Sequence record: NC_031047.1
DNA: 64,000 nucleotides
Source: Escherichia phage HY03
Direction: 5' to 3' (one strand)
The notes under the pieces: model-generated
The model's input: only the letters and a program-made list of their open reading frames with translations
Databases searched by the model: none
What the model was told of the DNA's origin: nothing
Made by a program: the position numbers and the translations under genes
Part shown: piece by piece, positions 43,066 through 64,000 of the stretch
Position numbering within the stretch: the first letter of the stretch is position 1
Layout of the letters: each line of letters opens with the position of its first letter

Positions 43066-44574
43066 ATGGATATTAAAGTACATTTTCACGACTTCAGTCA
43101 TGTACGCATCGATTGTGAAGAGAGCACGTTCCACGAATTAAGAGATTTCTTTTCGTTTGAGGCCGATGGATATAGATTTAACCCTCGCTTCAGATATGGC
43201 AACTGGGATGGACGAATCCGTCTTTTAGATTATAATCGTCTTCTTCCATTCGGCTTAGTCGGGCAAATTAAAAAGTTCTGTGATAACTTTGGCTATAAAG
43301 CCTGGATTGACCCACAAATTAACGAAAAAGAAGAATTATCAAGAAAAGATTTTGATGAATGGCTTTCTAAATTAGAAATCTATTCAGGAAATAAAAGAAT
43401 TGAACCACACTGGTATCAAAAAGATGCAGTGTTCGAAGGATTAGTTAATCGTCGTAGAATTCTTAATCTTCCAACATCCGCTGGTAAATCGTTAATTCAA
43501 GCTTTGCTTGCGCGATATTATTTGGAAAATTATGAAGGTAAAATTCTTATCATTGTTCCAACAACTGCTCTAACAACTCAGATGGCTGATGACTTCGTTG
43601 ACTATCGTTTATTCAGTCATGCAATGATAAAGAAAATTGGTGGCGGAGCATCAAAAGATGATAAATATAAAAATGATGCACCAGTCGTTGTTGGTACATG
43701 GCAAACTGTAGTAAAACAACCGAAAGAATGGTTCTCACAGTTTGGAATGATGATGAATGATGAATGCCATCTTGCTACAGGAAAAAGTATTTCATCTATC
43801 ATATCAGGTTTAAATAACTGCATGTTCAAATTTGGTCTATCTGGTTCATTACGTGATGGCAAAGCCAATATCATGCAGTATGTTGGAATGTTTGGTGAAA
43901 TATTTAAGCCAGTAACGACTTCTAAGTTAATGGAAGATGGACAAGTAACTGAGCTAAAAATTAATAGTATTTTTCTTCGCTATCCCGATGAGTTCACTAC
44001 TAAATTAAAGGGAAAAACTTATCAAGAAGAAATAAAAATTATTACGGGGCTTAGTAAAAGAAATAAATGGATCGCTAAATTGGCTATTAAGCTTGCACAA
44101 AAAGATGAAAACGCTTTTGTCATGTTTAAACACGTATCGCACGGTAAAGCTATTTTCGATTTAATTAAAAATGAATACGATAAAGTTTATTACGTATCAG
44201 GGGAAGTTGATACCGAAACCCGCAACGTAATGAAAACCTTAGCTGAAAATGGTAAAGGAATAATTATAGTAGCTAGTTATGGTGTATTTTCTACTGGTAT
44301 TTCAGTTAAAAATCTGCATCACGTTGTTTTAGCGCACGGTGTTAAATCAAAAATCATTGTATTACAAACAATCGGTCGTGTATTACGTAAGCATGGTTCT
44401 AAGACAATAGCAACGGTCTGGGACCTCATTGATGACGCGGGCGTAGTTTCTAAATCAAAAACATCTTCTAAAAAATACTCGCATTTAAACTATCTTTTAA
44501 AACATGGACTTGATCGTATTCAGCGTTATGCTGATGAGAAGTTTAATTATGTGATGAAAGAGGTTAAACTTTGA
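43066..44574 (+). CDS. uvsW: UvsW SF2 DNA helicase
   Basis: 502 aa; helicase motifs (PTSAGKS, DECH); T4 UvsW sequence recognised. Confidence 0.9.
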   Translation: MDIKVHFHDFSHVRIDCEESTFHELRDFFSFEADGYRFNPRFRYGNWDGRIRLLDYNRLLPFGLVGQIKKFCDNFGYKAWIDPQINEKEELSRKDFDEWLSKLEIYSGNKRIEPHWYQKDAVFEGLVNRRRILNLPTSAGKSLIQALLARYYLENYEGKILIIVPTTALTTQMADDFVDYRLFSHAMIKKIGGGASKDDKYKNDAPVVVGTWQTVVKQPKEWFSQFGMMMNDECHLATGKSISSIISGLNNCMFKFGLSGSLRDGKANIMQYVGMFGEIFKPVTTSKLMEDGQVTELKINSIFLRYPDEFTTKLKGKTYQEEIKIITGLSKRNKWIAKLAIKLAQKDENAFVMFKHVSHGKAIFDLIKNEYDKVYYVSGEVDTETRNVMKTLAENGKGIIIVASYGVFSTGISVKNLHHVVLAHGVKSKIIVLQTIGRVLRKHGSKTIATVWDLIDDAGVVSKSKTSSKKYSHLNYLLKHGLDRIQRYADEKFNYVMKEVKL

Positions 44575-45263
44575 ATTATAAATTAATATACGATAATTTA
44601 ATTAATAGAGCCCAGAATCGGGCTCGCCTTAATGGATACACTGAAACTCATCATATAATTCCTAGATGTATGGGCGGTACAGATGATAAGTGTAATTTGG
44701 TAGAACTAACAGCTGAAGAGCATTTTATAGCTCATAAACTTTTAGCTAAAATTCATCCAAACCATTACGGTATAATTAAAGCCGTTATATGTATGGGGAT
44801 GAATTCAAAAACTCATGAAAGACACGTTAATAAATCTTACGCCTGGGAACGTCGTAAAATGGCAGAACTTCAATCAGGTGAAGGTAATCCATTTTACGGA
44901 AAACACCATACGGAAGAACATAAACAATATATGTCAAAACTCATGAAAAATCGTCCAATTACGTGGGGAAGTAAAATTAGTAAAACTAAAAGAATGAACC
45001 CAACAAAATGGACTGAAGAAGCTAAAAGATTGCATTCTATCAATCAATCAGGTAAAAATAATGGCATGTATGGAAGGAAACATTCCGCTAAATCTATTCA
45101 GAAAATTAAAGATAACATGCCAGATAATTCAGGAGCTAATAACCCAGCTGCTAAACCTATAGAAGTAAATGGTGTTAAGTATAAATGCATGAAAGATGCT
45201 TCTAAAGCTACTGGATTATCAATGTACAAACTAAGAATACTTAGAAAAACAGTTAATTTATAA
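44571..45263 (+). CDS. HNH homing endonuclease (Mob-type)
   Basis: 230 aa; HNH motif HHIIPRCMGGTDDKCNLVELTAEEHFIAH; N-terminal 65 aa closely parallel ORF 5409..6083. Confidence 0.7.
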   Translation: MNYKLIYDNLINRAQNRARLNGYTETHHIIPRCMGGTDDKCNLVELTAEEHFIAHKLLAKIHPNHYGIIKAVICMGMNSKTHERHVNKSYAWERRKMAELQSGEGNPFYGKHHTEEHKQYMSKLMKNRPITWGSKISKTKRMNPTKWTEEAKRLHSINQSGKNNGMYGRKHSAKSIQKIKDNMPDNSGANNPAAKPIEVNGVKYKCMKDASKATGLSMYKLRILRKTVNL

Positions 45264-54636: not shown

Positions 54637-55281
54637 TTATCCTTGAACGAACTTGTAAGGCATGTTTGCAATATCTATGCAAGACGCAATAATTCCAAGA
54701 GATGATTCTACTTTCTGTTTAACATTTGATGAAACAAATGATGCAAAGTCAACTCTGTCTTCTATTTCAATATCACCTGTCATTGCAACTACTTCACCAG
54801 TTTCCATTAGACGGTCACCGTCATAAATTACTGATTCGGTGAGTTCTTCCGTAGTCATAACTTCAGCTTGAATGAGTTTTGTATTATTAAATGTTGTTCC
54901 GTCATTATTAGAAGCATCAGTTATTTTATTAACTTTGACCATCAATCCACGTGGTAGAATAACTTCAGCTTCTGTTGCTATTCCGAGACTTCCTGGATAT
55001 ACAACATTAACTTTATGAGCTCCATCAATTGCCCATCCTATTTGAACTTTAACGTATTCAGGATTTTCTTTATACGCTCTTATTTCGTTTGGATTAATAG
55101 TTATTCCTTCTTCATTTTTATCAACTGTCAATTCATTACGAGCTTCTGGTTCTAAAAGACCGATACCAGCATGTGTAATTCCAAAACGTCCAAAAATGAT
55201 AGGAGTTAAAGAAGTAGATACAAAATTTCTGAAATAGAACACTTTATTTTTAACTAATGCTTCGTATATAGGAGCAGTCAA
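54637..55281 (-). CDS. ADP-ribosyltransferase-like protein, apparently N-terminally truncated (Alt/Mod-like)
   Basis: 214-aa ORF from a TTG start; STS motif (FVSTSLTP) and E-x-E (TEAEV) about 90 aa later, but no upstream Arg-motif region; in-frame stop 5 codons upstream. Confidence 0.4.
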   Translation of the reverse strand: MTAPIYEALVKNKVFYFRNFVSTSLTPIIFGRFGITHAGIGLLEPEARNELTVDKNEEGITINPNEIRAYKENPEYVKVQIGWAIDGAHKVNVVYPGSLGIATEAEVILPRGLMVKVNKITDASNNDGTTFNNTKLIQAEVMTTEELTESVIYDGDRLMETGEVVAMTGDIEIEDRVDFASFVSSNVKQKVESSLGIIASCIDIANMPYKFVQG

Positions 55282-55282
55282 T

Positions 55283-55633
55283 ATGAAAGGTAATGTTTAT
55301 TTAGTAGTTCATGATTTAACATTCTATTTTAATCATAATGATACTGTTATTTCTGAACGTGTAATTAATTTGCTTTATCAGCATGCAGATTATGTTTATG
55401 TCGAAAACGAATATGGTCATTGGCAATTTCTCAAAAATCGTTCATTTGGTTTAGATGGTTACGAATATTTTGATCGTAAAGACCTTTTAGATACAATTCC
55501 GTTATCTACACAATATCAAAATCATAAGTCTTTACATAAATGCCGGCTAATTCGAAATGCTGAATCCGCGTATGAAGCAATTGATTTATGGCGTAAACGC
55601 CGTGAACAGATTGATGCTTTAAAAGAATATTAA
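55283..55633 (+). CDS. hypothetical protein (116 aa)
   Basis: ORF with Shine-Dalgarno GGAG before ATG; begins at the synteny breakpoint. Confidence 0.5.
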   Translation: MKGNVYLVVHDLTFYFNHNDTVISERVINLLYQHADYVYVENEYGHWQFLKNRSFGLDGYEYFDRKDLLDTIPLSTQYQNHKSLHKCRLIRNAESAYEAIDLWRKRREQIDALKEY

Positions 55634-55639
55634 GAAACC

Positions 55640-55995
55640 GGGTCGCTACCGGTAAGTCGTCGGACTGATGTTCCCTGGAGTATAGTTTCCTCCCACAGTT
55701 TTACTGTGTTCTGGCTCTTTACTATTACAGCAGAAACGGCGCACCGAATTATCGATTCGAGGAAATATCTTTGCCATAAGCCGAGTAGCGTTTTTGACGG
55801 AACGTTCGGATATGGTCGAGATATGGCCTTTTAAAAATATTGAGTAGCGTCAACTACTTAATAACCGGGTTCAAATCCCGGCGTTTCGTACAAACACTTG
55901 CCTTAGCAGGTGGAACCCCGACAAGGTTGCCGCAAGGCTTAGCCCTGACCGAAAGGTTGGGGCTTTTTAGTTTGAATCACTCAGAGAATGCTGTT
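55640..55995 (+). ncRNA. candidate structured small-RNA locus
   Basis: About 400 bp with no ORF of 60 aa or more; tRNA-like T-arm CCGGG-TTCAAAT-CCCGG (55864-55880); terminal hairpin CCCTGACC-GAAA-GGTTGGGG plus T-run (55951-55976). Confidence 0.25.
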
Positions 55996-56043
55996 ACGGA
56001 TAATAAATAATTAATAACCAATAAATTATTTCAAGGATTTTAA

Positions 56044-56607
56044 ATGAAAACCTATGCCGAATTTTTAACTGAAGCAGCAAAATTACCATCTGAAGCAGAT
56101 CTTACTAAAGTATTCTTCCACTTGGACCCAAAAGACCGGGGCGATTTTCTTAAGTGGAAAGCTAAAGCTATTGAAATGTATAACATCGATAACAGTTCTT
56201 TTACGATGAGCCAAGAAAATAGTTTCAATAAAGCATTTTTCAAAATTTCTAAGAAATTGGCATCTGGCGCTCAGGTTTCTAAATCTGCATTAGCTACTCC
56301 TGAACGTGCACCTGTTAAAATTTCTAAGAATATGTTTGACACTAAAAAATATGTCAATGCTTTGAATAAAGCTCTTGATGCATTGGATGATGCAAAGAAG
56401 GCAGCCCGCGATCTTCAAGACGTGTATACCGATTTTGATCGTAAAACTAAAGGTTCTATTTCAAATAGCGAACGCAATAGTGTAAGTGTTTATTCTGATA
56501 GCCTTGATGTTCTTGGCGATGCATATACTGAAATTAAAAATCGTATTAACACCGCATCTAAGCTAAAAGCTGCTGCAGAAGCTATAATAACTAAACTAGG
56601 TAAATAA
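56044..56607 (+). CDS. internal-protein-like capsid-targeted protein
   Basis: 187 aa; N-terminal MKTYAEFLTE|A matches the T4 capsid targeting sequence cleaved by gp21. Confidence 0.6.
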   Translation: MKTYAEFLTEAAKLPSEADLTKVFFHLDPKDRGDFLKWKAKAIEMYNIDNSSFTMSQENSFNKAFFKISKKLASGAQVSKSALATPERAPVKISKNMFDTKKYVNALNKALDALDDAKKAARDLQDVYTDFDRKTKGSISNSERNSVSVYSDSLDVLGDAYTEIKNRINTASKLKAAAEAIITKLGK

Positions 56608-56615
56608 TTTTAAAT

Positions 56616-56640
56616 CCCTATCTAAATGATAGGGCTTTTT
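56616..56640 (+). terminator. rho-independent terminator
   Basis: Hairpin CCCTATC-TAAATG-ATAGGG followed by CTTTTT. Confidence 0.55.
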
Positions 56641-56762
56641 GGTATCTAGGCCTTTCCGGGCCTCTCTAGGCATCATTTAGTTTATATCCTTTATAATATA
56701 TTATCCTACCTTTTAATTGCCCCTCCCCGCCCTAAAATTCCCTAAAAATTTTTCACAAAACT

Positions 56763-56792
56763 GTTTACATCCCTGTTCTTCTATGGTACTAT
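56763..56792 (+). promoter_or_regulatory. T4 early-type promoter
   Basis: -35 GTTTAC, 18-bp spacer, -10 TACTAT, upstream of ORF 56836. Confidence 0.55.
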
Positions 56793-56835
56793 ATCAATAT
56801 CAACTACTGATACAGAAAACAACTTGGAGAATAAA

Positions 56836-57099
56836 ATGGATAATTACGGTGAACTGTTCAACTTCTTTATGAAATGTGTTTCAGAAGATTTCGGTCGTAC
56901 AGTGAATGATATTAAAGTTATCGGTCCTGATCATCCGATGTTTGAAACTTACGCAGTAATGGGTAATGAAGATGGTCAGTGGTATACTGTAAAGGTTGTG
57001 ATTAACATGTTCACTGCTGAAGGTTATGTTAAACTGTCTTCTAAAGTTTACCATGATAACGATGAAATCGCAGAAGAATATTTCAATAATATGAAATAA
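56836..57099 (+). CDS. hypothetical protein
   Basis: ORF 56824..57099; ATG at 56836 preceded by GGAGA. Confidence 0.5.
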   Translation: MDNYGELFNFFMKCVSEDFGRTVNDIKVIGPDHPMFETYAVMGNEDGQWYTVKVVINMFTAEGYVKLSSKVYHDNDEIAEEYFNNMK

Positions 57100-57167
57100 T
57101 TGTGTACAAACACCAAGGACGGTGTTATTATAGACTTATCAAAACAAATACAGAAACGGAGAAATAA

Positions 57168-57332
57168 ATGACTACTTTAATTATTTGGTTTGACGAAAAT
57201 GAAGAAACATACTGCGTGAACATTGGCGAAAGCCCAATGCCAGAATTTGAATCTTCGGATAAAAACTCGGTTGTATCTTGGGCTGAAGGTTATAAAGCAG
57301 CAAAAGGCGATGTTGAAATAGTTTACAAATAA
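57168..57332 (+). CDS. small hypothetical protein (54 aa)
   Basis: Below the 60-aa cutoff of the ORF track; ATG preceded by ACGGAGAAATAA; fills an otherwise empty 270-bp gap. Confidence 0.4.
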   Translation: MTTLIIWFDENEETYCVNIGESPMPEFESSDKNSVVSWAEGYKAAKGDVEIVYK

Positions 57333-57375
57333 TACTCTTATGGATTTTAAATCTTAATTAACCTAAGGAAATACT

Positions 57376-57969
57376 ATGAACACACTGAAGAAAATTGTTG
57401 AGTTTATTCGCACTAAACTTGGTTCTGCTATGGCTAAAAATTTATCCGTTGAAGAACAGTATACTGCTGCGGCAGCAAAACTACTTGATAAGATTAAAGA
57501 TCTAAAAACTGCTTCTGTTAAATCTATTAATGAAGAAAAGCGTATTCGTGAACTTATTGTCGAAAAGAATAAGCAGGCCGAATCAAAAGAGCGTGAAATT
57601 CGCAAGCTTCTTTCTGAAGGTCAAGATGTAACAATGCATGCTAAACTTGGTTTGCTATATCGTCGAACAGCTGAACAGTTGACTACTAAAGCTGATGGTT
57701 ATGCTGAAATGCGAATTGAAATCGCCAAGAAAGTAGTTGAGTTAGATGATGCTCGCCAAGAACTTGCAGTTAAATTGGAATATATCCGTGAAACTCGTGC
57801 AGCAAATGCCCTTGGAATTAGTACTGCTGATGATGTAGTTGAAATTGCAGCGCTGACTAAGGTTGATATTGAAGATACTCTTGCTCGAGTTGAAACCTTT
57901 AATGGTAATATTTCTGGGGTTGAAACTACCTCTGCCGATGTTCAGGAATACATTAATTCTCTGAAATAA
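57376..57969 (+). CDS. hypothetical coiled-coil protein (197 aa)
   Basis: Lys/Glu-rich helical sequence; hairpin GGGGCTTAGGCCCC downstream. Confidence 0.5.
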
Positions 57970-58010
57970 TGATAAGGGGCTTAGGCCCCTATTACTTGGA
58001 GTAAATAGGA

Positions 58011-58619
58011 ATGAAAATGCAAAGTGATTTCAATTCAATGTTTGAAGAGTTCCAAAGACAGGTTGATGTTCCAGACCAATTGCTAAATGCTCTTAAACGC
58101 ATGGCAGAAGGACGTAATTATTATTGGGGTTCTTCATATGAAACAGACGAAAGCCTTTCTGGAAGATTTTCCAGAGGTAAAAAGTCTTTAATACGTCCTG
58201 GAATACTTATTAACAGTATTGAATCAATTTATTCATTGACATGCGATTTTGATGTTGAATTTACTGATTTCATTTCTCCTGAATGGACAGTTTGTTATTT
58301 AAACGACGATTTTGATTATCTCGGTGTTTATAGTTTAAGTGACGCATGGTTTAAACGTAACTTACAAAAGTCAAATTTATTCTATATTGATACTACAGTA
58401 AAATTTCAGGGAAAGAAATATTTCTTTACTCTTATAGTTGATTCTGAAACGAAGCATGAAAATAAACGTATTCTTAGTAAAAGAAATATCTTGAATATTG
58501 TTGATGATCTTTTTGATAAATTAGTGGAAAATCCTAATTTTGAAAGTGATTTATTACTAGAAAAATTTGTTAAGGAATGTAGAGAATATGTCAAAACCAT
58601 CACTATACCTTCCAAGTAA
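58011..58619 (+). CDS. hypothetical protein (202 aa)
   Basis: First of four consecutive ORFs sharing a C-terminal F-x-x-E-C-R-K/E motif. Confidence 0.5.
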   Translation: MKMQSDFNSMFEEFQRQVDVPDQLLNALKRMAEGRNYYWGSSYETDESLSGRFSRGKKSLIRPGILINSIESIYSLTCDFDVEFTDFISPEWTVCYLNDDFDYLGVYSLSDAWFKRNLQKSNLFYIDTTVKFQGKKYFFTLIVDSETKHENKRILSKRNILNIVDDLFDKLVENPNFESDLLLEKFVKECREYVKTITIPSK

Positions 58620-58980
58620 ACCGTTGAAGTATGAATTAAAGCGTCAGATAATTTCTACTGATGTATTAATAGGTCCTGTTATACTTATATCATTTGTAAT
58701 TCTATTGATTATTGGAGGTGTTTTAGATGTTATGACTGATATTGATTCTGGCGAAATACTTGTGTTAATGCTAATTCTTCCATTAATAGTTCCATTTTTA
58801 TTAGTACCTATAAATTGGGTAGGATACTGGTATCAAGGAAGGCATTATCGTAAACGTGTACGTGATTGGAAAGCACAGTGTAAAAAGATTAAAAAGGAAC
58901 ACCAGCTTAAACTTGCTGCGTATGAATTTGATGAAATTATGAAATTTGTTAAGGAATCACGATGCAAAAGCCAAAACTAA
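58588..58980 (+). CDS. small membrane protein (two predicted TM helices)
   Basis: ORF 58567..58980; probable start MSKPSLY with RBS; hydrophobic stretches VILISFVILLIIGGVL and ILVLMLILPLIVPFLLVPI. Confidence 0.5.
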   Translation: MSKPSLYLPSKPLKYELKRQIISTDVLIGPVILISFVILLIIGGVLDVMTDIDSGEILVLMLILPLIVPFLLVPINWVGYWYQGRHYRKRVRDWKAQCKKIKKEHQLKLAAYEFDEIMKFVKESRCKSQN

Positions 58981-59324
58981 ATAAAGTCAAATATTCGCTT
59001 CCTGAGTCATTTTTAATTTTTGCTGTGGCGTTGGCTGCAGCTCTTGCAGGTAGTATTTTTGGATTGTTAATTGACTGTCTTATTTTAAACATCGACGACA
59101 CAGTAAATATAACAGAAGTTTGGAGTGAGCTTTGTTATACTAAAATTATTTCATTGTTTTCATTCTTTGGTACAATGTTATATTTTCATTATGATAATTT
59201 TAAAATAAATTGGCAAAGAAAAAAGGATTACAAAATACAATTAAAAGAATATAACAACTACGTGTCTTATATTGAAAAAGAATCAATGGAAGAGTTTGTG
59301 AGTGATTGTAGGAAAATCAAATGA
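58962..59324 (+). CDS. small membrane protein
   Basis: 120 aa; hydrophobic N-terminal segments; C-terminal ...EEFVSDCRKIK. Confidence 0.5.
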   Translation: MQKPKLNKVKYSLPESFLIFAVALAAALAGSIFGLLIDCLILNIDDTVNITEVWSELCYTKIISLFSFFGTMLYFHYDNFKINWQRKKDYKIQLKEYNNYVSYIEKESMEEFVSDCRKIK

Positions 59325-59809
59325 TTTTAAAAACTCGCTGGTATGATTTAGATGATGGGGATGATGGCATTTCAGTTGATAGAGTTGATTGGAATGGTTG
59401 TTCCGAAGATACAAAGAAACGATTAATTAGGGAGTTTAGAATGGGATATCAAGCAGCTAAACCATTTACTGTAACAGATGATAAATTCGTGTGTATTCAA
59501 AATGGTCGCGCTAAGTTAACGAATGCCGATTGGTTCACAGATAAGAAGGTTATTCTGTGGTATATCATTAGTCTTCCTATATCATCGTTCGTATTTTACT
59601 TTTTTATAAAAAATCCAATGGACAGAATAGGAGATTGGGTTCTTTTAACTATACTTGTTAATATTTTTACAGCAGCAGTATTATCAGGAATATGGCGTAT
59701 GTTCATTGAAATGCCATGGCGTTTACGCAGACAGCAAAAGATTTTTGATGAAAAGAAATATGCTCAAAATTTAAATAACTTTATCACTGAATGCAGGAAA
59801 TTAAAATGA
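59321..59809 (+). CDS. small membrane protein
   Basis: 162 aa; two hydrophobic segments; C-terminal ...NFITECRKLK. Confidence 0.5.
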   Translation: MILKTRWYDLDDGDDGISVDRVDWNGCSEDTKKRLIREFRMGYQAAKPFTVTDDKFVCIQNGRAKLTNADWFTDKKVILWYIISLPISSFVFYFFIKNPMDRIGDWVLLTILVNIFTAAVLSGIWRMFIEMPWRLRRQQKIFDEKKYAQNLNNFITECRKLK

Positions 59810-60246
59810 AAACATTATCAGCTGGTATTATCTTCATGACAGAAGATAAAGATTTATTTATGGGTCGGGTTACTGGTTCTCGTAAGCCTGGAATGATGGC
59901 ACATCGCTGGGATATTCCAAAGGGACGTGTAGAAAGTTCTGATTTGAATGCACTGGAAGCTGCAAAAAGAGAATGCTTAGAAGAGACCGGTTTTAGCAAT
60001 TATAATCCAGACCTTCTAGAAGACCTAGGTGTATTTAAATATTCTAGTAATAAAGACTTACAGTTATTTTATTATACGATTCCAGTAGAGCATGAGATGT
60101 TTAGAAATTGCCATTGTGAGTCTTATTTTGAAAATAAAGATGGTGTTATGATTCCAGAGATGGACGCTTTTGCTCTTATTCCTCGTACTCAGTGGCAATA
60201 TGTGATGGGTCCTTCACTTTACCGAATAATGAACAACCTCTTTTAA
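59791..60246 (+). CDS. nudE: Nudix hydrolase NudE (e.1)
   Basis: 151 aa; Nudix box GRVESSDLNALEAAKRECLEETGF; directly upstream of lysozyme gene. Confidence 0.8.
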   Translation: MQEIKMKTLSAGIIFMTEDKDLFMGRVTGSRKPGMMAHRWDIPKGRVESSDLNALEAAKRECLEETGFSNYNPDLLEDLGVFKYSSNKDLQLFYYTIPVEHEMFRNCHCESYFENKDGVMIPEMDAFALIPRTQWQYVMGPSLYRIMNNLF

Positions 60247-60777
<531 letters not shown>

Positions 60778-60781
60778 AGCT

Positions 60782-60811
60782 GTTTACTTTCTCTTAGAAT
60801 TGTGATAGTAT
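60782..60811 (+). promoter_or_regulatory. T4 early-type promoter
   Basis: -35 GTTTAC, 18-bp spacer, -10 TAGTAT, upstream of ORF 60871. Confidence 0.5.
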
Positions 60812-60870
60812 ATTCACAGTTACTTGAATAGACAATTACCAATTAAAATATTTACATTTAAAGGAAACAC

Positions 60871-61344
60871 ATGAAAACATATCAAGAATTTATTACTGAA
60901 GCAGCTATTAATTCTCAAATTATTGCTGAATCTTTTACTGATCTTTTGAAATTTAAAAAAGGACAGAAAATCACTGCTGTATTGGATGATGGTACAGAAG
61001 TTGAGATGGATGTACAGGGATATAATTATGCAGTAGATGGAAAACTGTATAATAAATCTCATGCTAAATTTGATTCATTTGACGACTTTGTTAATACAGT
61101 TGAAGATGAAAAAACTCGTCGATCCATTGCAACTGGTGATGCTAAGGTTCTTATGGCACATGGTCATGAACGCATTCGCGCTAAACAGAATAAAATGGGT
61201 GAAGATAATTTTGCATTAGTTGGTTATCAATCTGGTAAGCAAACTTATGGCTATCAGCGTACTGCTACCATGTATAATAAAAATGGTAAAATCGCTTTCG
61301 TGAATAGTAAAGGTTCTATTCAGTACGTTAAATCGTTCAAATAA
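60871..61344 (+). CDS. internal protein (ipII/ipIII position) with capsid targeting sequence
   Basis: 157 aa; N-terminal MKTYQEFITE|A is the T4 internal-protein targeting signal; lies beside gene e. Confidence 0.65.
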   Translation: MKTYQEFITEAAINSQIIAESFTDLLKFKKGQKITAVLDDGTEVEMDVQGYNYAVDGKLYNKSHAKFDSFDDFVNTVEDEKTRRSIATGDAKVLMAHGHERIRAKQNKMGEDNFALVGYQSGKQTYGYQRTATMYNKNGKIAFVNSKGSIQYVKSFK

Positions 61345-61485
61345 TATGGGAACAACCTGGACCTCATGATTCTGTGAGGGATTCCCGCCAACCTGTAATA
61401 AGGTCGAGCCCAAGTGCGGTAATGGGTAAATACAGAAATGGACAATTCATGCGCCATGGAATGGCCCAAACCTAGAGAGAACAAA

Positions 61486-62025
61486 ATGAGAACATTTTTA
61501 ACTGGTCCTTATCTATCCCTGATGAATGCTTTTACACACCATTCTGATGCTAGAGTAGAAGAAATTTGTAAAAACGATTATATCCCGCCATTTGAAGACT
61601 TACTTAAGCAGTATTGCACACTTCGACTAGATGGTGGACGTCAATCCGGTAAATCAACTGCAGTAACTAATTTTGCCGCTAATTGGTTGTATGACGGTGG
61701 AACAGTTATTGTTCTTTCTAATACTTCAGCTTACGCTAAAATTTCTGCAAATAGCATCAAAAAGGAATTTTTGCGTTATTCTAATGATGATATACGTTTT
61801 CGTTTATTTACTGATTCTGTGCGCAGTTTTATCGGTAATAAAGGAAGCAAGTTCAGAGGTTTAAAGCTTTCGCGAATTTTGTATATAATTGATGAGCCTG
61901 TCAAATCTCCTGATATGGATAAGATTTATAGTGTCCATATTGACACTGTACACTGCTGCTGTAATATTAAATGTTGTATTGGTGGTATTACTCGTCCACA
62001 GTTTTTCGTAATCGGAATGCAATGA
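61486..62025 (+). CDS. hypothetical P-loop NTPase-like protein
   Basis: ORF 61438..62025; Walker A-like GGRQSGKST and Walker B-like ILYIIDEP; start probably MRTFLT. Confidence 0.45.
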   Translation: MRTFLTGPYLSLMNAFTHHSDARVEEICKNDYIPPFEDLLKQYCTLRLDGGRQSGKSTAVTNFAANWLYDGGTVIVLSNTSAYAKISANSIKKEFLRYSNDDIRFRLFTDSVRSFIGNKGSKFRGLKLSRILYIIDEPVKSPDMDKIYSVHIDTVHCCCNIKCCIGGITRPQFFVIGMQ

Positions 62026-62351
62026 TGACAGACACTCAGCTTTTCGAATATCTTTATTTTTCGCCAAAAACTATTAAAAATAAATTAGTGAATCATTTTG
62101 AAATTTTGGCAAATAACAACGTCTTGAGCGAATTTTATCCTAAGCAATACAAATTACAAAAAGGCGTATTCAAAGGATGCAGAGTTTTGTGTACTGCTCC
62201 TAATGCACGGCTAATGAATAAAATTCCATATTTTACCATGGAATTTATTGATGGGCCTTTTAAAGGACTAATCACCCAAAGTTTAATGGCATATGATTCT
62301 GAGCCATTTTTAATTAAAGAACAATCTTGGATAAATTTATTTTCTAATTGA
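62022..62351 (+). CDS. hypothetical protein
   Basis: ORF 61971..62351; likely start at ATGATG overlapping the upstream stop (ATGA). Confidence 0.45.
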
Positions 62352-62358
62352 GGTTTAT

Positions 62359-62721
62359 ATGAAAGCATATCAAATTCTTGAAGGCACACATAAAGGTACT
62401 ATTTATTTTGAAGATGGTATTCAAGCACGAATTATCGTTTCTAAAACCTTTAAAGAGGACTCTTTTGTAGACCCAGAAATTTTCTACGGTTTGCATGCCC
62501 GTGAAATTGAAATTGAGCAACAGCCTACAGTTAAAATTGAAGGTGGTCAACACCTGAACGTTAACGTTCTGCGTCGTGAAACTCTGGAAGATGCAGTTAA
62601 GCATCCGGAAAAATATCCGCAGCTGACCATCCGTGTATCCGGTTATGCAGTTCGCTTTAACTCTCTGACTCCGGAACAGCAGCGCGACGTTATCGCTCGT
62701 ACCTTCACCGAGAGTTTGTAA
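62359..62721 (+). CDS. autonomous glycyl-radical cofactor (GrcA/YfiD-like)
   Basis: 120 aa; C-terminal ~60 aa [60 protein letters not shown] matches E. coli GrcA with RVSGY glycyl-radical motif; host-like codon usage in the 3' half. Confidence 0.75.
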
Positions 62722-62942
62722 TGGCAAAGATAATTATTGAAGGTTCTGAAGATGTGCTAAATGCTTTCGCCGAATGGTTTAGTAATTCAGGCGAACAGCA
62801 ATTTAACGAAGCATGGAACATGGGTGATATTGATGGAATTTATCCCACGACAGAAATTTCTGTTCAAGGATATGGAATTCATGAGCCTATTCGTTTAGTT
62901 GAATATGATTTAGGTACTGGTGAGGAAGTAAAATATGATTGA
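62721..62942 (+). CDS. hypothetical small acidic protein (73 aa)
   Basis: Tightly packed early ORF. Confidence 0.45.
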   Translation: MAKIIIEGSEDVLNAFAEWFSNSGEQQFNEAWNMGDIDGIYPTTEISVQGYGIHEPIRLVEYDLGTGEEVKYD

Positions 62943-63201
62943 AGATATTAAGGGTTATAAGCCACATACTGAAGAGAAAATCGGTAAAGTGAATGCTATT
63001 AAAGACGCTGAAGTTCGTTTAGGACTTATCTTTGATGCTTTATACGATGAATTCTGGGAAGCACTAGATAATTGTGAAGACTGTGAATTCGCGAAGAATT
63101 ATGCTGAAAGCCTCGATCAGTTAACTATTGCTAAAACGAAACTCAAAGAAGCCAGTATGTGGGCTTGCCGTGCTGTGTTCCAACCAGAGGAAAAATACTA
63201 A
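62935..63201 (+). CDS. hypothetical small protein (88 aa)
   Basis: Tightly packed early ORF, two ORFs upstream of regB (vs.4-like position). Confidence 0.45.
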
Positions 63202-63479
63202 TGGCTCAATTAAGCGCAGGGTTTGGTTATGAGTATTATACTGCCCCTCGTCGTGTATCTGTTGCTCCTAAGAAAATTCAAAGTCTTGATGACTTCCAGG
63301 AAGTAGTTCGTAACGCTTTCCAGGACTATGCACGTTATCTTAAAGAAGATTCACAGGACTGTCTCGAAGAAGATGAAATTGCTTACTATGAGCAGCGTCT
63401 TGAACAGCTCAAAAATCTACATGAGGTTCGTGCAGAAGTTTCAAAGTCTATGAATAAATTGGTCAGATTTAAAGAATAA
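63159..63479 (+). CDS. hypothetical small protein (106 aa)
   Basis: Early ORF adjacent to regB. Confidence 0.45.
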
Positions 63480-63481
63480 CT

Positions 63482-63511
63482 GTTTACTTTTCCTCTTGAC
63501 TGTGGTATAAT
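63482..63511 (+). promoter_or_regulatory. T4 early-type promoter upstream of regB
   Basis: -35 GTTTAC, 18-bp spacer, -10 TATAAT, then GAGGAG RBS. Confidence 0.6.
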
Positions 63512-63538
63512 TTTTCTATCAGTTAAGAGGAGAATAAC

Positions 63539-64000
63539 ATGACTATCAACACAGAAGTTTTTATTCGTCGAAATAAGCTCCGTCGTCACTTTGAGTCGGA
63601 GTTTCGTCAAATTAACAATGAGATTCGTGAGGCATCAAAAGCAGCAGGGGTCTCATCGTTTCATCTAAAATATTCTCAACATCTTCTTGATCGCGCAATT
63701 CAACGGGAGATTGATGAGACATACGTTTTTGAATTATTCCATAAAATAAAAGACCATGTTTTAGAAGTTAATGAATTCCTGAGTATGCCTCCGCGTCCTG
63801 ACATTGACGAGGATTTTATTGATGGGGTTGAATATCGTCCTGGACGTTTAGAAATCACAGATGGAAATCTTTGGCTTGGATTTACAGTTTGTAAACCTAA
63901 CGAGAAGTTCAAAAACCCGTCACTTCAATGTAGGATGGCAATTATCAACAGTCGTCGTTTACCAGGAAAGGCTTCTAAAGCAGTAATTAAAACTCAATGA
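63539..64000 (+). CDS. regB: RegB endoribonuclease
   Basis: 153 aa as T4 RegB (MTINTEVFIRRNKLRR...); identification from memory. Confidence 0.6.
   Translation: MTINTEVFIRRNKLRRHFESEFRQINNEIREASKAAGVSSFHLKYSQHLLDRAIQREIDETYVFELFHKIKDHVLEVNEFLSMPPRPDIDEDFIDGVEYRPGRLEITDGNLWLGFTVCKPNEKFKNPSLQCRMAIINSRRLPGKASKAVIKTQ

Follow-up and report, generated by a model that had tools for sequence, protein, structure and literature searches.

The closest described systems are phage sponges, short proteins that sequester an immune nucleotide. The T4 protein Vs.4, also named Acb2 (anti-CBASS 2), is a hexamer that holds three molecules of 3′,3′-cGAMP with a Kd of ~30 nM; the ligand is stacked by Y8 and F82 and contacted by H11, K23 and R79, and L29, A66, A73 and A77 lie at the interface (Jenson et al., 2023, Nature, PMC10097602). 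Knockout of T4 vs.4 lowers the titre ~50-fold on a CBASS system carrying an inactive, mutant Cap2 (Jenson et al., 2023). A second study obtained a Kd of ~84 nM for 3′,3′-cGAMP, and found that T4-Acb2 takes up cyclic dinucleotides, whereas cA3 and cAAG are not bound (Cao et al., 2023, PMC10312549). T4 Acb2 also binds 2′,3′-c-di-AMP (~62 nM) and thereby triggers Panoptes (Sullivan et al., 2025, PMC12657218). The Acb2 of Pseudomonas phage PaMx33 (PDB 8H2J, 8H2X and 8IXZ; Huiting, 2023; Cao, 2023) has, in contrast to the T4 type, a second pocket for cyclic trinucleotides, marked by R67/T74 and a kinked helix (PMC10312549).

For the neighbouring T4 gene, vs.3, the relevant work is that of Chen et al. 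(2026, Nat Commun, PMC13243611; all further statements in this paragraph are from that paper). Type IV Thoeris is a TIR plus caspase-like system, and a mating of T4 with T6 mapped vs.3 as the gene that defeats it. Deletion of vs.3 makes T4 sensitive to type IV Thoeris and complementation rescues it; the product, TadIV-1, sequesters N7-cADPR without degrading it, with a KD of ~216 nM. Besides knockout and complementation, the assignment of T4 Vs.3 as TadIV-1 draws on SPR, mutagenesis and a crystal structure. The crystallised protein, the UPEC07 homologue, forms a dimer whose protomers have two helices each, and its N-terminal 32 residues are invisible in the crystal. That flexible region is required: short homologues of ~70 amino acids are inactive, all long homologues tested are active, and R17, R18 and K24 matter for binding in the T4 protein. 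T2 encodes a functional TadIV-1 homologue and yet is sensitive to type IV Thoeris, so that the presence of vs.3 does not guarantee the phenotype.

The window analysed here is a stretch of 64,000 nucleotides from Escherichia phage HY03 (NC_031047.1). Megablast of its e to regB region (60,200-64,000) identifies a T4/T2-like phage (Tequatrovirus), with 98.9% identity to Escherichia phage ELT1 and ~97% to SG1, RB27 and T2; 482 of the 906 records matching the region do so at a query coverage of at least 80%. The gene order vs.8, vs.7, vs.6, vs.5, vs.4, vs.3, regB, as annotated in T2 (LC348380) and T4 (NC_000866), recurs on the plus strand of the window, and its last part reads as follows.

62359-62721, + strand: vs.6, GrcA-like glycyl-radical cofactor, 120 aa (PF01228, E 2.5e-18)
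62721-62942, + strand: vs.5 orthologue, 73 aa, ATG start (phrog_1986, E 6e-43)
62935-63201, + strand: vs.4 (acb2), cyclic-dinucleotide sponge (anti-CBASS 2), 88 aa, ATG start (identity with PDB 7UQ2; PF24729)
63201-63479, + strand: vs.3 (tadIV-1), N7-cADPR sponge (anti type IV Thoeris), 92 aa (T4 Vs.3; PDB 9WIW)
63483-63511, + strand: promoter-like site of sigma-70/T4-early type, by consensus match only
63539-64000, + strand: regB endoribonuclease (PF10715, E 5.9e-69)

The original prediction had placed three small overlapping ORFs between a GrcA-like gene and regB, and these are present where it located them, with both neighbours confirmed by Pfam. The window's RegB is one residue apart from that of T4, and Vs.6 also matches TIGR04365 (E 1.2e-45), although under the curated cut-off. 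We conclude, with a probability of about 0.93, that the small genes adjoining regB are the T-even genes vs.5, vs.4 and vs.3, that vs.4 encodes Acb2 and that vs.3 encodes TadIV-1. The biology of the latter two is already published, for an identical protein in the case of Vs.4 and a near-identical one in the case of Vs.3.

The three ORFs can first be distinguished from chance reading frames. Compared with phage MN01 (Gaprivervirus), pN and pS are 0.27 and 0.75 for vs.5, 0.22 and 0.56 for vs.4, and 0.17 and 0.70 for vs.3, at 55-75% amino acid identity and with synonymous change near saturation. Because pN lies far under pS, a chance origin is ruled out for all three. Homologues were found by tblastn in 986 phage records for vs.5, 1230 for vs.4 and 651 for vs.3. 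Judged by this pattern of substitution and recurrence, all three are real, conserved genes.

For the 88-aa ORF, the original prediction had guessed the vs.4 (Acb2) position from gene order and had left similarity to the T4 protein to be checked; that check bears the guess out. The product is identical to the crystallised T4 Vs.4 (PDB 7UQ2) at 88/88 residues (E 1.9e-57), and the DNA differs from that of T4 at synonymous sites only. It matches the Pfam family PF24729 (Acb2_Tad1_hairpin) at 71.4 bits against a cut-off of 27 (E 7.1e-20), over all 58 of the 58 profile positions, and falls in phrog_717 (E 2.3e-32), the PHROG by which Vs.4 homologues were defined (Jenson et al., 2023, PMC10097602). 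The residues kept are Y8, H11, T12, K23, L29, F33, L60, A66, A73, S74, A77, R79 and F82, which include the cyclic-dinucleotide contacts (Y8, H11, K23, R79, F82 and S74 in T4 numbering) and the hexamer interface (L29, F33, A66, A73 and A77); the residues identified by screening in T4 Vs.4 are likewise all present. T4 Vs.4 and the window's Vs.4 therefore share every residue, the slot two genes upstream of regB and the same neighbours, with no difference at the protein level. The likeness to PaMx33 Acb2 is more distant: Pfam family, fold and a Tyr/Lys cyclic-dinucleotide pocket are common to both, but identity is ~24% and the direct match (to 8H2J/8IXZ) is weak, at E about 0.03. The second, cyclic-trinucleotide pocket of PaMx33 (R67/T74), a feature of a subgroup and not one that defines the family, is absent from the window's Vs.4, which has D61 at the position equivalent to R67; D61 and T68 are both as in T4, whose protein does not bind cA3. 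By identity with the tested T4 protein, the window's Vs.4 is predicted to bind 3′,3′-cGAMP and to protect from CBASS.

For the ORF next to regB, the original prediction was right that a gene is present, but it missed that this is a second published sponge. Vs.3 of the window and of T4 agree at 90 of 92 residues, the substitutions being T64E and I88V; both are of the long form, flexible N-terminal loop included, both have R17, R18 and K24, and both occupy the slot adjacent to regB. The match to UPEC07 TadIV-1 (PDB 9WIW) extends over residues 1-92 (E 7.6e-38), and a profile of 24 Vs.3 homologues aligns with 9WIW over the full length (E 7e-60); the protein belongs to phrog_2037 (E 4e-40). Besides the basic residues for N7-cADPR binding, R17, R18 and K24, it keeps K25, K48, E49 and H74, and as a long form (>80 aa) it includes the N-terminal 28 residues. 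UPEC07 TadIV-1 (101 aa) has an N-terminal loop nine residues longer than those of the window's Vs.3 and T4. Of the two substitutions, I88V is conservative, and the caveat raised by T64E is eased in that the crystallised UPEC07 homologue has the same glutamate there. 9WIW, the one TadIV-1 structure to have been solved, carries the PDB label ‘Endoribonuclease’, an annotation apparently carried over from the adjacent regB.

An AlphaFold2 model of the Vs.3 monomer, made before the published architecture was known to us, has disordered residues 1-28 (pLDDT 36-40) followed by antiparallel helices at 29-53 and 57-91, with moderate block-mean pLDDT values of ~63-77. As modelled, this architecture matches the published description of TadIV-1/9WIW. 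A Foldseek search of the PDB with the model gave no match (best E 4.3), a monomer with a floppy N-terminus being a poor query, and 9WIW was recovered through sequence search only. That Vs.3 and Vs.4, both helical hairpins, are diverged paralogues was also considered, and was rejected at an hhalign probability of 0.6%. From its resemblance to the T4 protein, the window's Vs.3 is predicted to sequester N7-cADPR and to rescue the phage from type IV Thoeris.

The original prediction listed the third ORF at 106 aa (63159-63479, from a GTG), an over-extension of a gene that runs from 63201 to 63479 and encodes 92 aa. If GTG 63159 were the true start, vs.3 would overlap vs.4 by 43 nt and TadIV-1 would carry a 14-residue N-terminal extension; the frame is indeed open from that codon, and one database protein (P0048, 118 aa) has a similar extension. 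Against this, 23 of the 24 aligned Vs.3 homologues begin at MAQ, the short form is the one annotated in T4, T2 and ELT1 (279 nt) and in MN01, and the T4 TadIV-1 that was tested has 92 aa (PMC13243611). Moreover, GAGGA stands 9 nt upstream of ATG 63201, and this ATG overlaps the vs.4 stop as TAATG, which is typical of coupling in T4. The GTG start is thus highly improbable, and on the alignment and the start context vs.3 almost certainly begins at ATG 63201, giving 92 aa.

The junctions between these genes are tight. The overlaps of vs.6 with vs.5 and of vs.4 with vs.3 are 1 nt each (TAATG), and that of vs.5 with vs.4 is 8 nt (ATGATTGA). This arrangement suggests that start/stop overlaps may couple the translation of vs.6, vs.5, vs.4 and vs.3. 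The vs.5-vs.4-vs.3 group forms the 3′ end of a gene run from vs.8 to vs.3 and would be bounded by the regB promoter: the spacer between vs.3 and regB alone holds TTTACT-17-TATAAT with a TG extension, a T4-early-type promoter-like site, and the regB Shine–Dalgarno sequence is GGAG at 63529. Immediately upstream of the cassette there is no convincing promoter, a consensus scan returning 15 sites against 14.1 ± 3.7 expected, that is, chance frequency. Chen et al. drove Vs.3-Vs.8 from ‘the promoter of vs.8’ (PMC13243611), and this expression design fits with a single upstream transcription unit. Structured RNA was sought across 60-64 kb, with no Rfam match at E values up to 1, and the GC-rich sequence that precedes vs.8 is no more stably folded than its shuffles (z = 0.70).

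Taken with the published biochemistry, a scheme for the cassette can be proposed in which two of the three genes would encode small homo-oligomeric sponges that sequester a second messenger without degrading it. The Vs.4/Acb2 hexamer would bind three cyclic dinucleotides, one per dimer interface; its ligands would be 3′,3′-cGAMP (~30-80 nM), other cyclic dinucleotides and 2′,3′-c-di-AMP, and as a T4-type protein it would bind no cyclic trinucleotides. Sequestration would leave CBASS effectors such as CapV inactive, and Acb2 would at the same time expose the phage to the Panoptes decoy-nucleotide system. Vs.3/TadIV-1 would act as a dimer of two-helix hairpins whose flexible basic N-terminal loop binds N7-cADPR (~216 nM), a capture that would stop activation of the type IV Thoeris caspase-like effector. 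Sequestin (T4 Y16O), Tad1, Tad2, Acb4 and Lockin follow the same strategy, a short homo-oligomeric phage protein sequestering an immune nucleotide. Sequestin and the other sponges have unrelated sequences and are encoded elsewhere in the genome, and they give no match to Vs.5, Vs.4 or Vs.3 beyond the Acb2/Tad1 hairpin family to which Vs.4 belongs.

The arrangement varies among more distant phages. In MN01 the order is vs.5-vs.4-vs.3-regB, with GrcA absent; in Moon, a gene for a Vs.5 relative immediately precedes vs.4; and in the Slopekvirus Matisse a terminator comes after GrcA-vs.4, with neither vs.5 nor vs.3 present. From these layouts it follows that, of the three genes, vs.4 is retained most widely, and that they are separable modules.

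This leaves Vs.5, an acidic protein of 73 aa (pI 4.05) assigned to phrog_1986, a PHROG without an annotated function. It differs by one residue from Vs.5 of the resequenced T4T and of ‘T4 wild’, and its conserved motifs are F..WFSNSGEQ.F.E and a C-terminal LVEYD..T.EE. The AlphaFold2 monomer is of low confidence (pLDDT 61), with a strand-helix-strand layout. A sequence profile search of the PDB returned noise only (E > 0.4), Foldseek found nothing under E 3 in the PDB and only uncharacterised sequence relatives in BFVD, Moon gp129 among them, and there was no match in NCBIfam and none of significance in Pfam. A search of 1.84 billion representatives with the Vs.5 profile yielded ~9 small phage proteins; long, multi-stretch matches to FG-GAP and Cna_B repeat proteins were set aside as spurious. 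Kinship with the UvsW N-terminal domain (PF21241) was also considered and rejected: it appeared for one of ten family members at E 0.056 and 14.3 bits against a cut-off of 25.3, and alignment with the window's own UvsW N-terminus gave an hhalign probability of 11.6%. Within the reach of these searches, Vs.5 is without a detectable relative of known function or fold.

Two accounts of Vs.5 can be weighed. The company it keeps raises the idea of a third counter-defence protein, which could be a sponge or could directly inhibit some further signalling or other defence system; its translation would be joined to that of Acb2 and TadIV-1 in an anti-immunity cassette, a reading put forward because of genomic association only. 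The vs.5 stop overlaps the acb2 start by the 8 nt described above, in Gaprivervirus (MN01) and Moonvirus (Moon gp129), both distant genera, the gene immediately before vs.4 encodes a relative of Vs.5, and the purifying selection on vs.5 can be counted in its favour. The protein is also small, acidic and phage-restricted, and the known sponges are short homo-oligomers. However, Vs.5 resembles no known sponge or anti-defence family, the low-confidence model offers no pocket that can be assessed, and Matisse keeps vs.6-vs.4 without vs.5, which means that Vs.5 is unneeded for Acb2 function. When Vs.3-Vs.8 were tested singly against type IV Thoeris, only Vs.3 was active, and Vs.5 alone did not inhibit the system (Chen et al., PMC13243611). 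We regard a counter-defence role as doubtful.

The alternative for Vs.5 is an ordinary accessory protein of early infection, non-essential and unrelated to immunity, either a modifier of host physiology or a partner of the GrcA-like Vs.6. Most small early genes of T4 are not anti-defence genes, and most T4 early ORFs of the size of Vs.5 are without a defence role, a background that counts against the counter-defence account and for this one. No search returned an anti-defence signal for Vs.5, and the start of vs.5 overlaps the stop of vs.6 in TAATG. As to a partnership with Vs.6, the Vs.5 relatives of MN01 and Moon have no adjacent GrcA gene, and Matisse has GrcA without Vs.5, a separate occurrence that leaves a dedicated partnership unsupported. 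On balance our best guess is that Vs.5 is probably such an accessory protein.

The T4 reference NC_000866 has a 1-nt deletion in vs.5, an error that produces a frameshifted product of 58 aa, whereas T4T and ‘T4 wild’ carry an intact vs.5 of 73 aa. The 45-aa ‘vs.5’ annotated in T2 (LC348380) is read from an incorrect frame, and its match is to the part of the NC_000866 Vs.5 that follows the frameshift, its out-of-frame tail. Three T2 records have in common a 2-nt deletion in vs.4 that brings a stop at codon 8, with loss of Y8. T2 stays restricted by E. coli CBASS with an inactive Cap2, and the premature stop fits with this restriction. Lost coupling into vs.3 might be the reason why T2 is sensitive to type IV Thoeris despite its functional TadIV-1.

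Elsewhere in the window, synteny with other phages breaks near position 55,281. The stretch 1-55,281 covers gene 57/1 to 54 in the T4-forward orientation and ends inside alt, while 55,283-64,000 run from a post-tRNA gene through e to regB in the reverse orientation; the tRNA cluster is absent from the window. None of 761 matching phage records spans the junction, where microhomology with the parental sequences amounts to only 1-2 nt. A search for the exact junction string in viral, genome and metagenome collections found only a chance 20-mer in an unrelated MAG. The break is either a real inversion or an assembly join.

In conclusion, the window belongs to a phage with a T2-like layout that carries intact copies of both sponges, and the value of the finding lies mainly in correct annotation: most of the public records, which number ~1,200 for vs.4 and ~650 for vs.3, give these genes as ‘hypothetical protein’. 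Going by its protein sequences, the phage should escape weak cGAMP-CBASS as well as type IV Thoeris, and sensitivity to Panoptes is expected. What novelty is left concerns Vs.5, a conserved orphan encoded directly upstream of two validated sponge genes and a reasonable candidate for anti-defence screening.

The window contains a break in synteny, with a junction at 55,270-55,290 (surroundings 43,000-64,000) that separates a block in T4-forward order from one in T4-reverse order. The features concerned are:

up to 55,281, T4-forward: block 1, with uvsW, uvsY, 25, 26, 51, 27, 28, 29, 48, 54 and alt (C-terminal 214 codons)
44,571-45,263: 230-aa ORF, immediately 3′ of uvsW and overlapping the uvsW stop
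from 55,283, T4-reverse: block 2, with the 116-aa gene that normally follows tRNA-Arg, e.x, nudE, e, ipIV, vs.8 to vs.3 and regB
60,871-61,344 (region 60,283-61,440): IpIV-type internal virion protein, single copy (DUF7412, phrog_3155)

The junction at 55,281 truncates alt and deprives the 116-aa gene of its Shine-Dalgarno sequence, and microhomology there is limited to 1-2 nt. The usual neighbour of the second block is the gene 57/1 region, which here lies at the window start. None of the 761 matching phage records spans the junction, and its exact sequence had no match in viral, genome or metagenome collections. The break looks like one breakpoint of an inversion of ~55 kb, or else like an assembly or concatenation join. 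ARAGORN detected no tRNA genes between 44,000 and 64,000, whereas in relatives such as genome G4498 a cluster of 10 tRNAs ends 18 nt upstream of the 116-aa gene (55,283 here); this cluster either lies past the 55,281 junction or has been lost.

Within the first block, the 230-aa ORF carries an H-N-H-like motif (ETHHIIPR...) at its N-terminus and is therefore probably a homing endonuclease insertion. In the second block, the interval between e and vs.8 holds a single IpIV-type gene where T4 has ipIII, ipII and denV. This is the layout of T2, RB27 and ELT1, and thus there is no denV (endonuclease V) at that locus. The 5′ end of the vs.8 reading frame (61,374-62,025) is also unlike that of T4: an ORF of 33 aa (61374-61475) ends after agreeing with T4 Vs.8 at 32 of the first 33 positions, and the phrog_1488 alignment of the main ORF (61438-62025, 195 aa) begins only at residue 19. 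The product, which has weak P-loop/AAA and terminase-N similarity, is likely to start at ATG 61486 and to comprise 179 aa, as annotated in ELT1.

The 58-aa vs.5 of the T4 reference NC_000866 (5382-5558) is a frameshifted form of the 73-aa gene found here (62721-62942), in which 1 nt has been lost following codon 17 of the reading frame. Since the 73-aa frame is intact in the resequenced T4T (HM137666) and in 'T4 wild' (KJ477684), the frameshift is probably an old sequencing error. The T2 record LC348380 has a 'vs.5' annotation of 45 aa in the wrong frame; it matches the out-of-frame tail of NC_000866 Vs.5 and corresponds to the window's alternative-frame ORF at 62761-62898.

In three T2 records, vs.4 has a 2-nt deletion at the equivalent of 62953-62956. 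The gene then reads ATG ATT GAA GAT ATT AAG GGA TAA, stopping at codon 8, and the annotated T2 vs.4 is rescued by a TTG start that leaves out Y8. On this sequence evidence functional Acb2 is probably missing from T2, which fits the observation that E. coli CBASS restricts T2 even when Cap2 is inactive (Jenson et al., 2023; PMC10097602). For TadIV-1 of T2, 'insufficient expression' has been proposed (Chen et al., 2026; PMC13243611), and loss of vs.4 to vs.3 translational coupling (TAATG) could explain it.

The sole solved structure of TadIV-1/Vs.3, PDB 9WIW, bears the name 'Endoribonuclease', and at least one phage record (MK373787, hit H105) has 'putative endoribonuclease' as one of the features listed where Vs.3 matches. 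The label appears to have been transferred from the adjoining regB, and would misdirect any annotation of Vs.3 by name.
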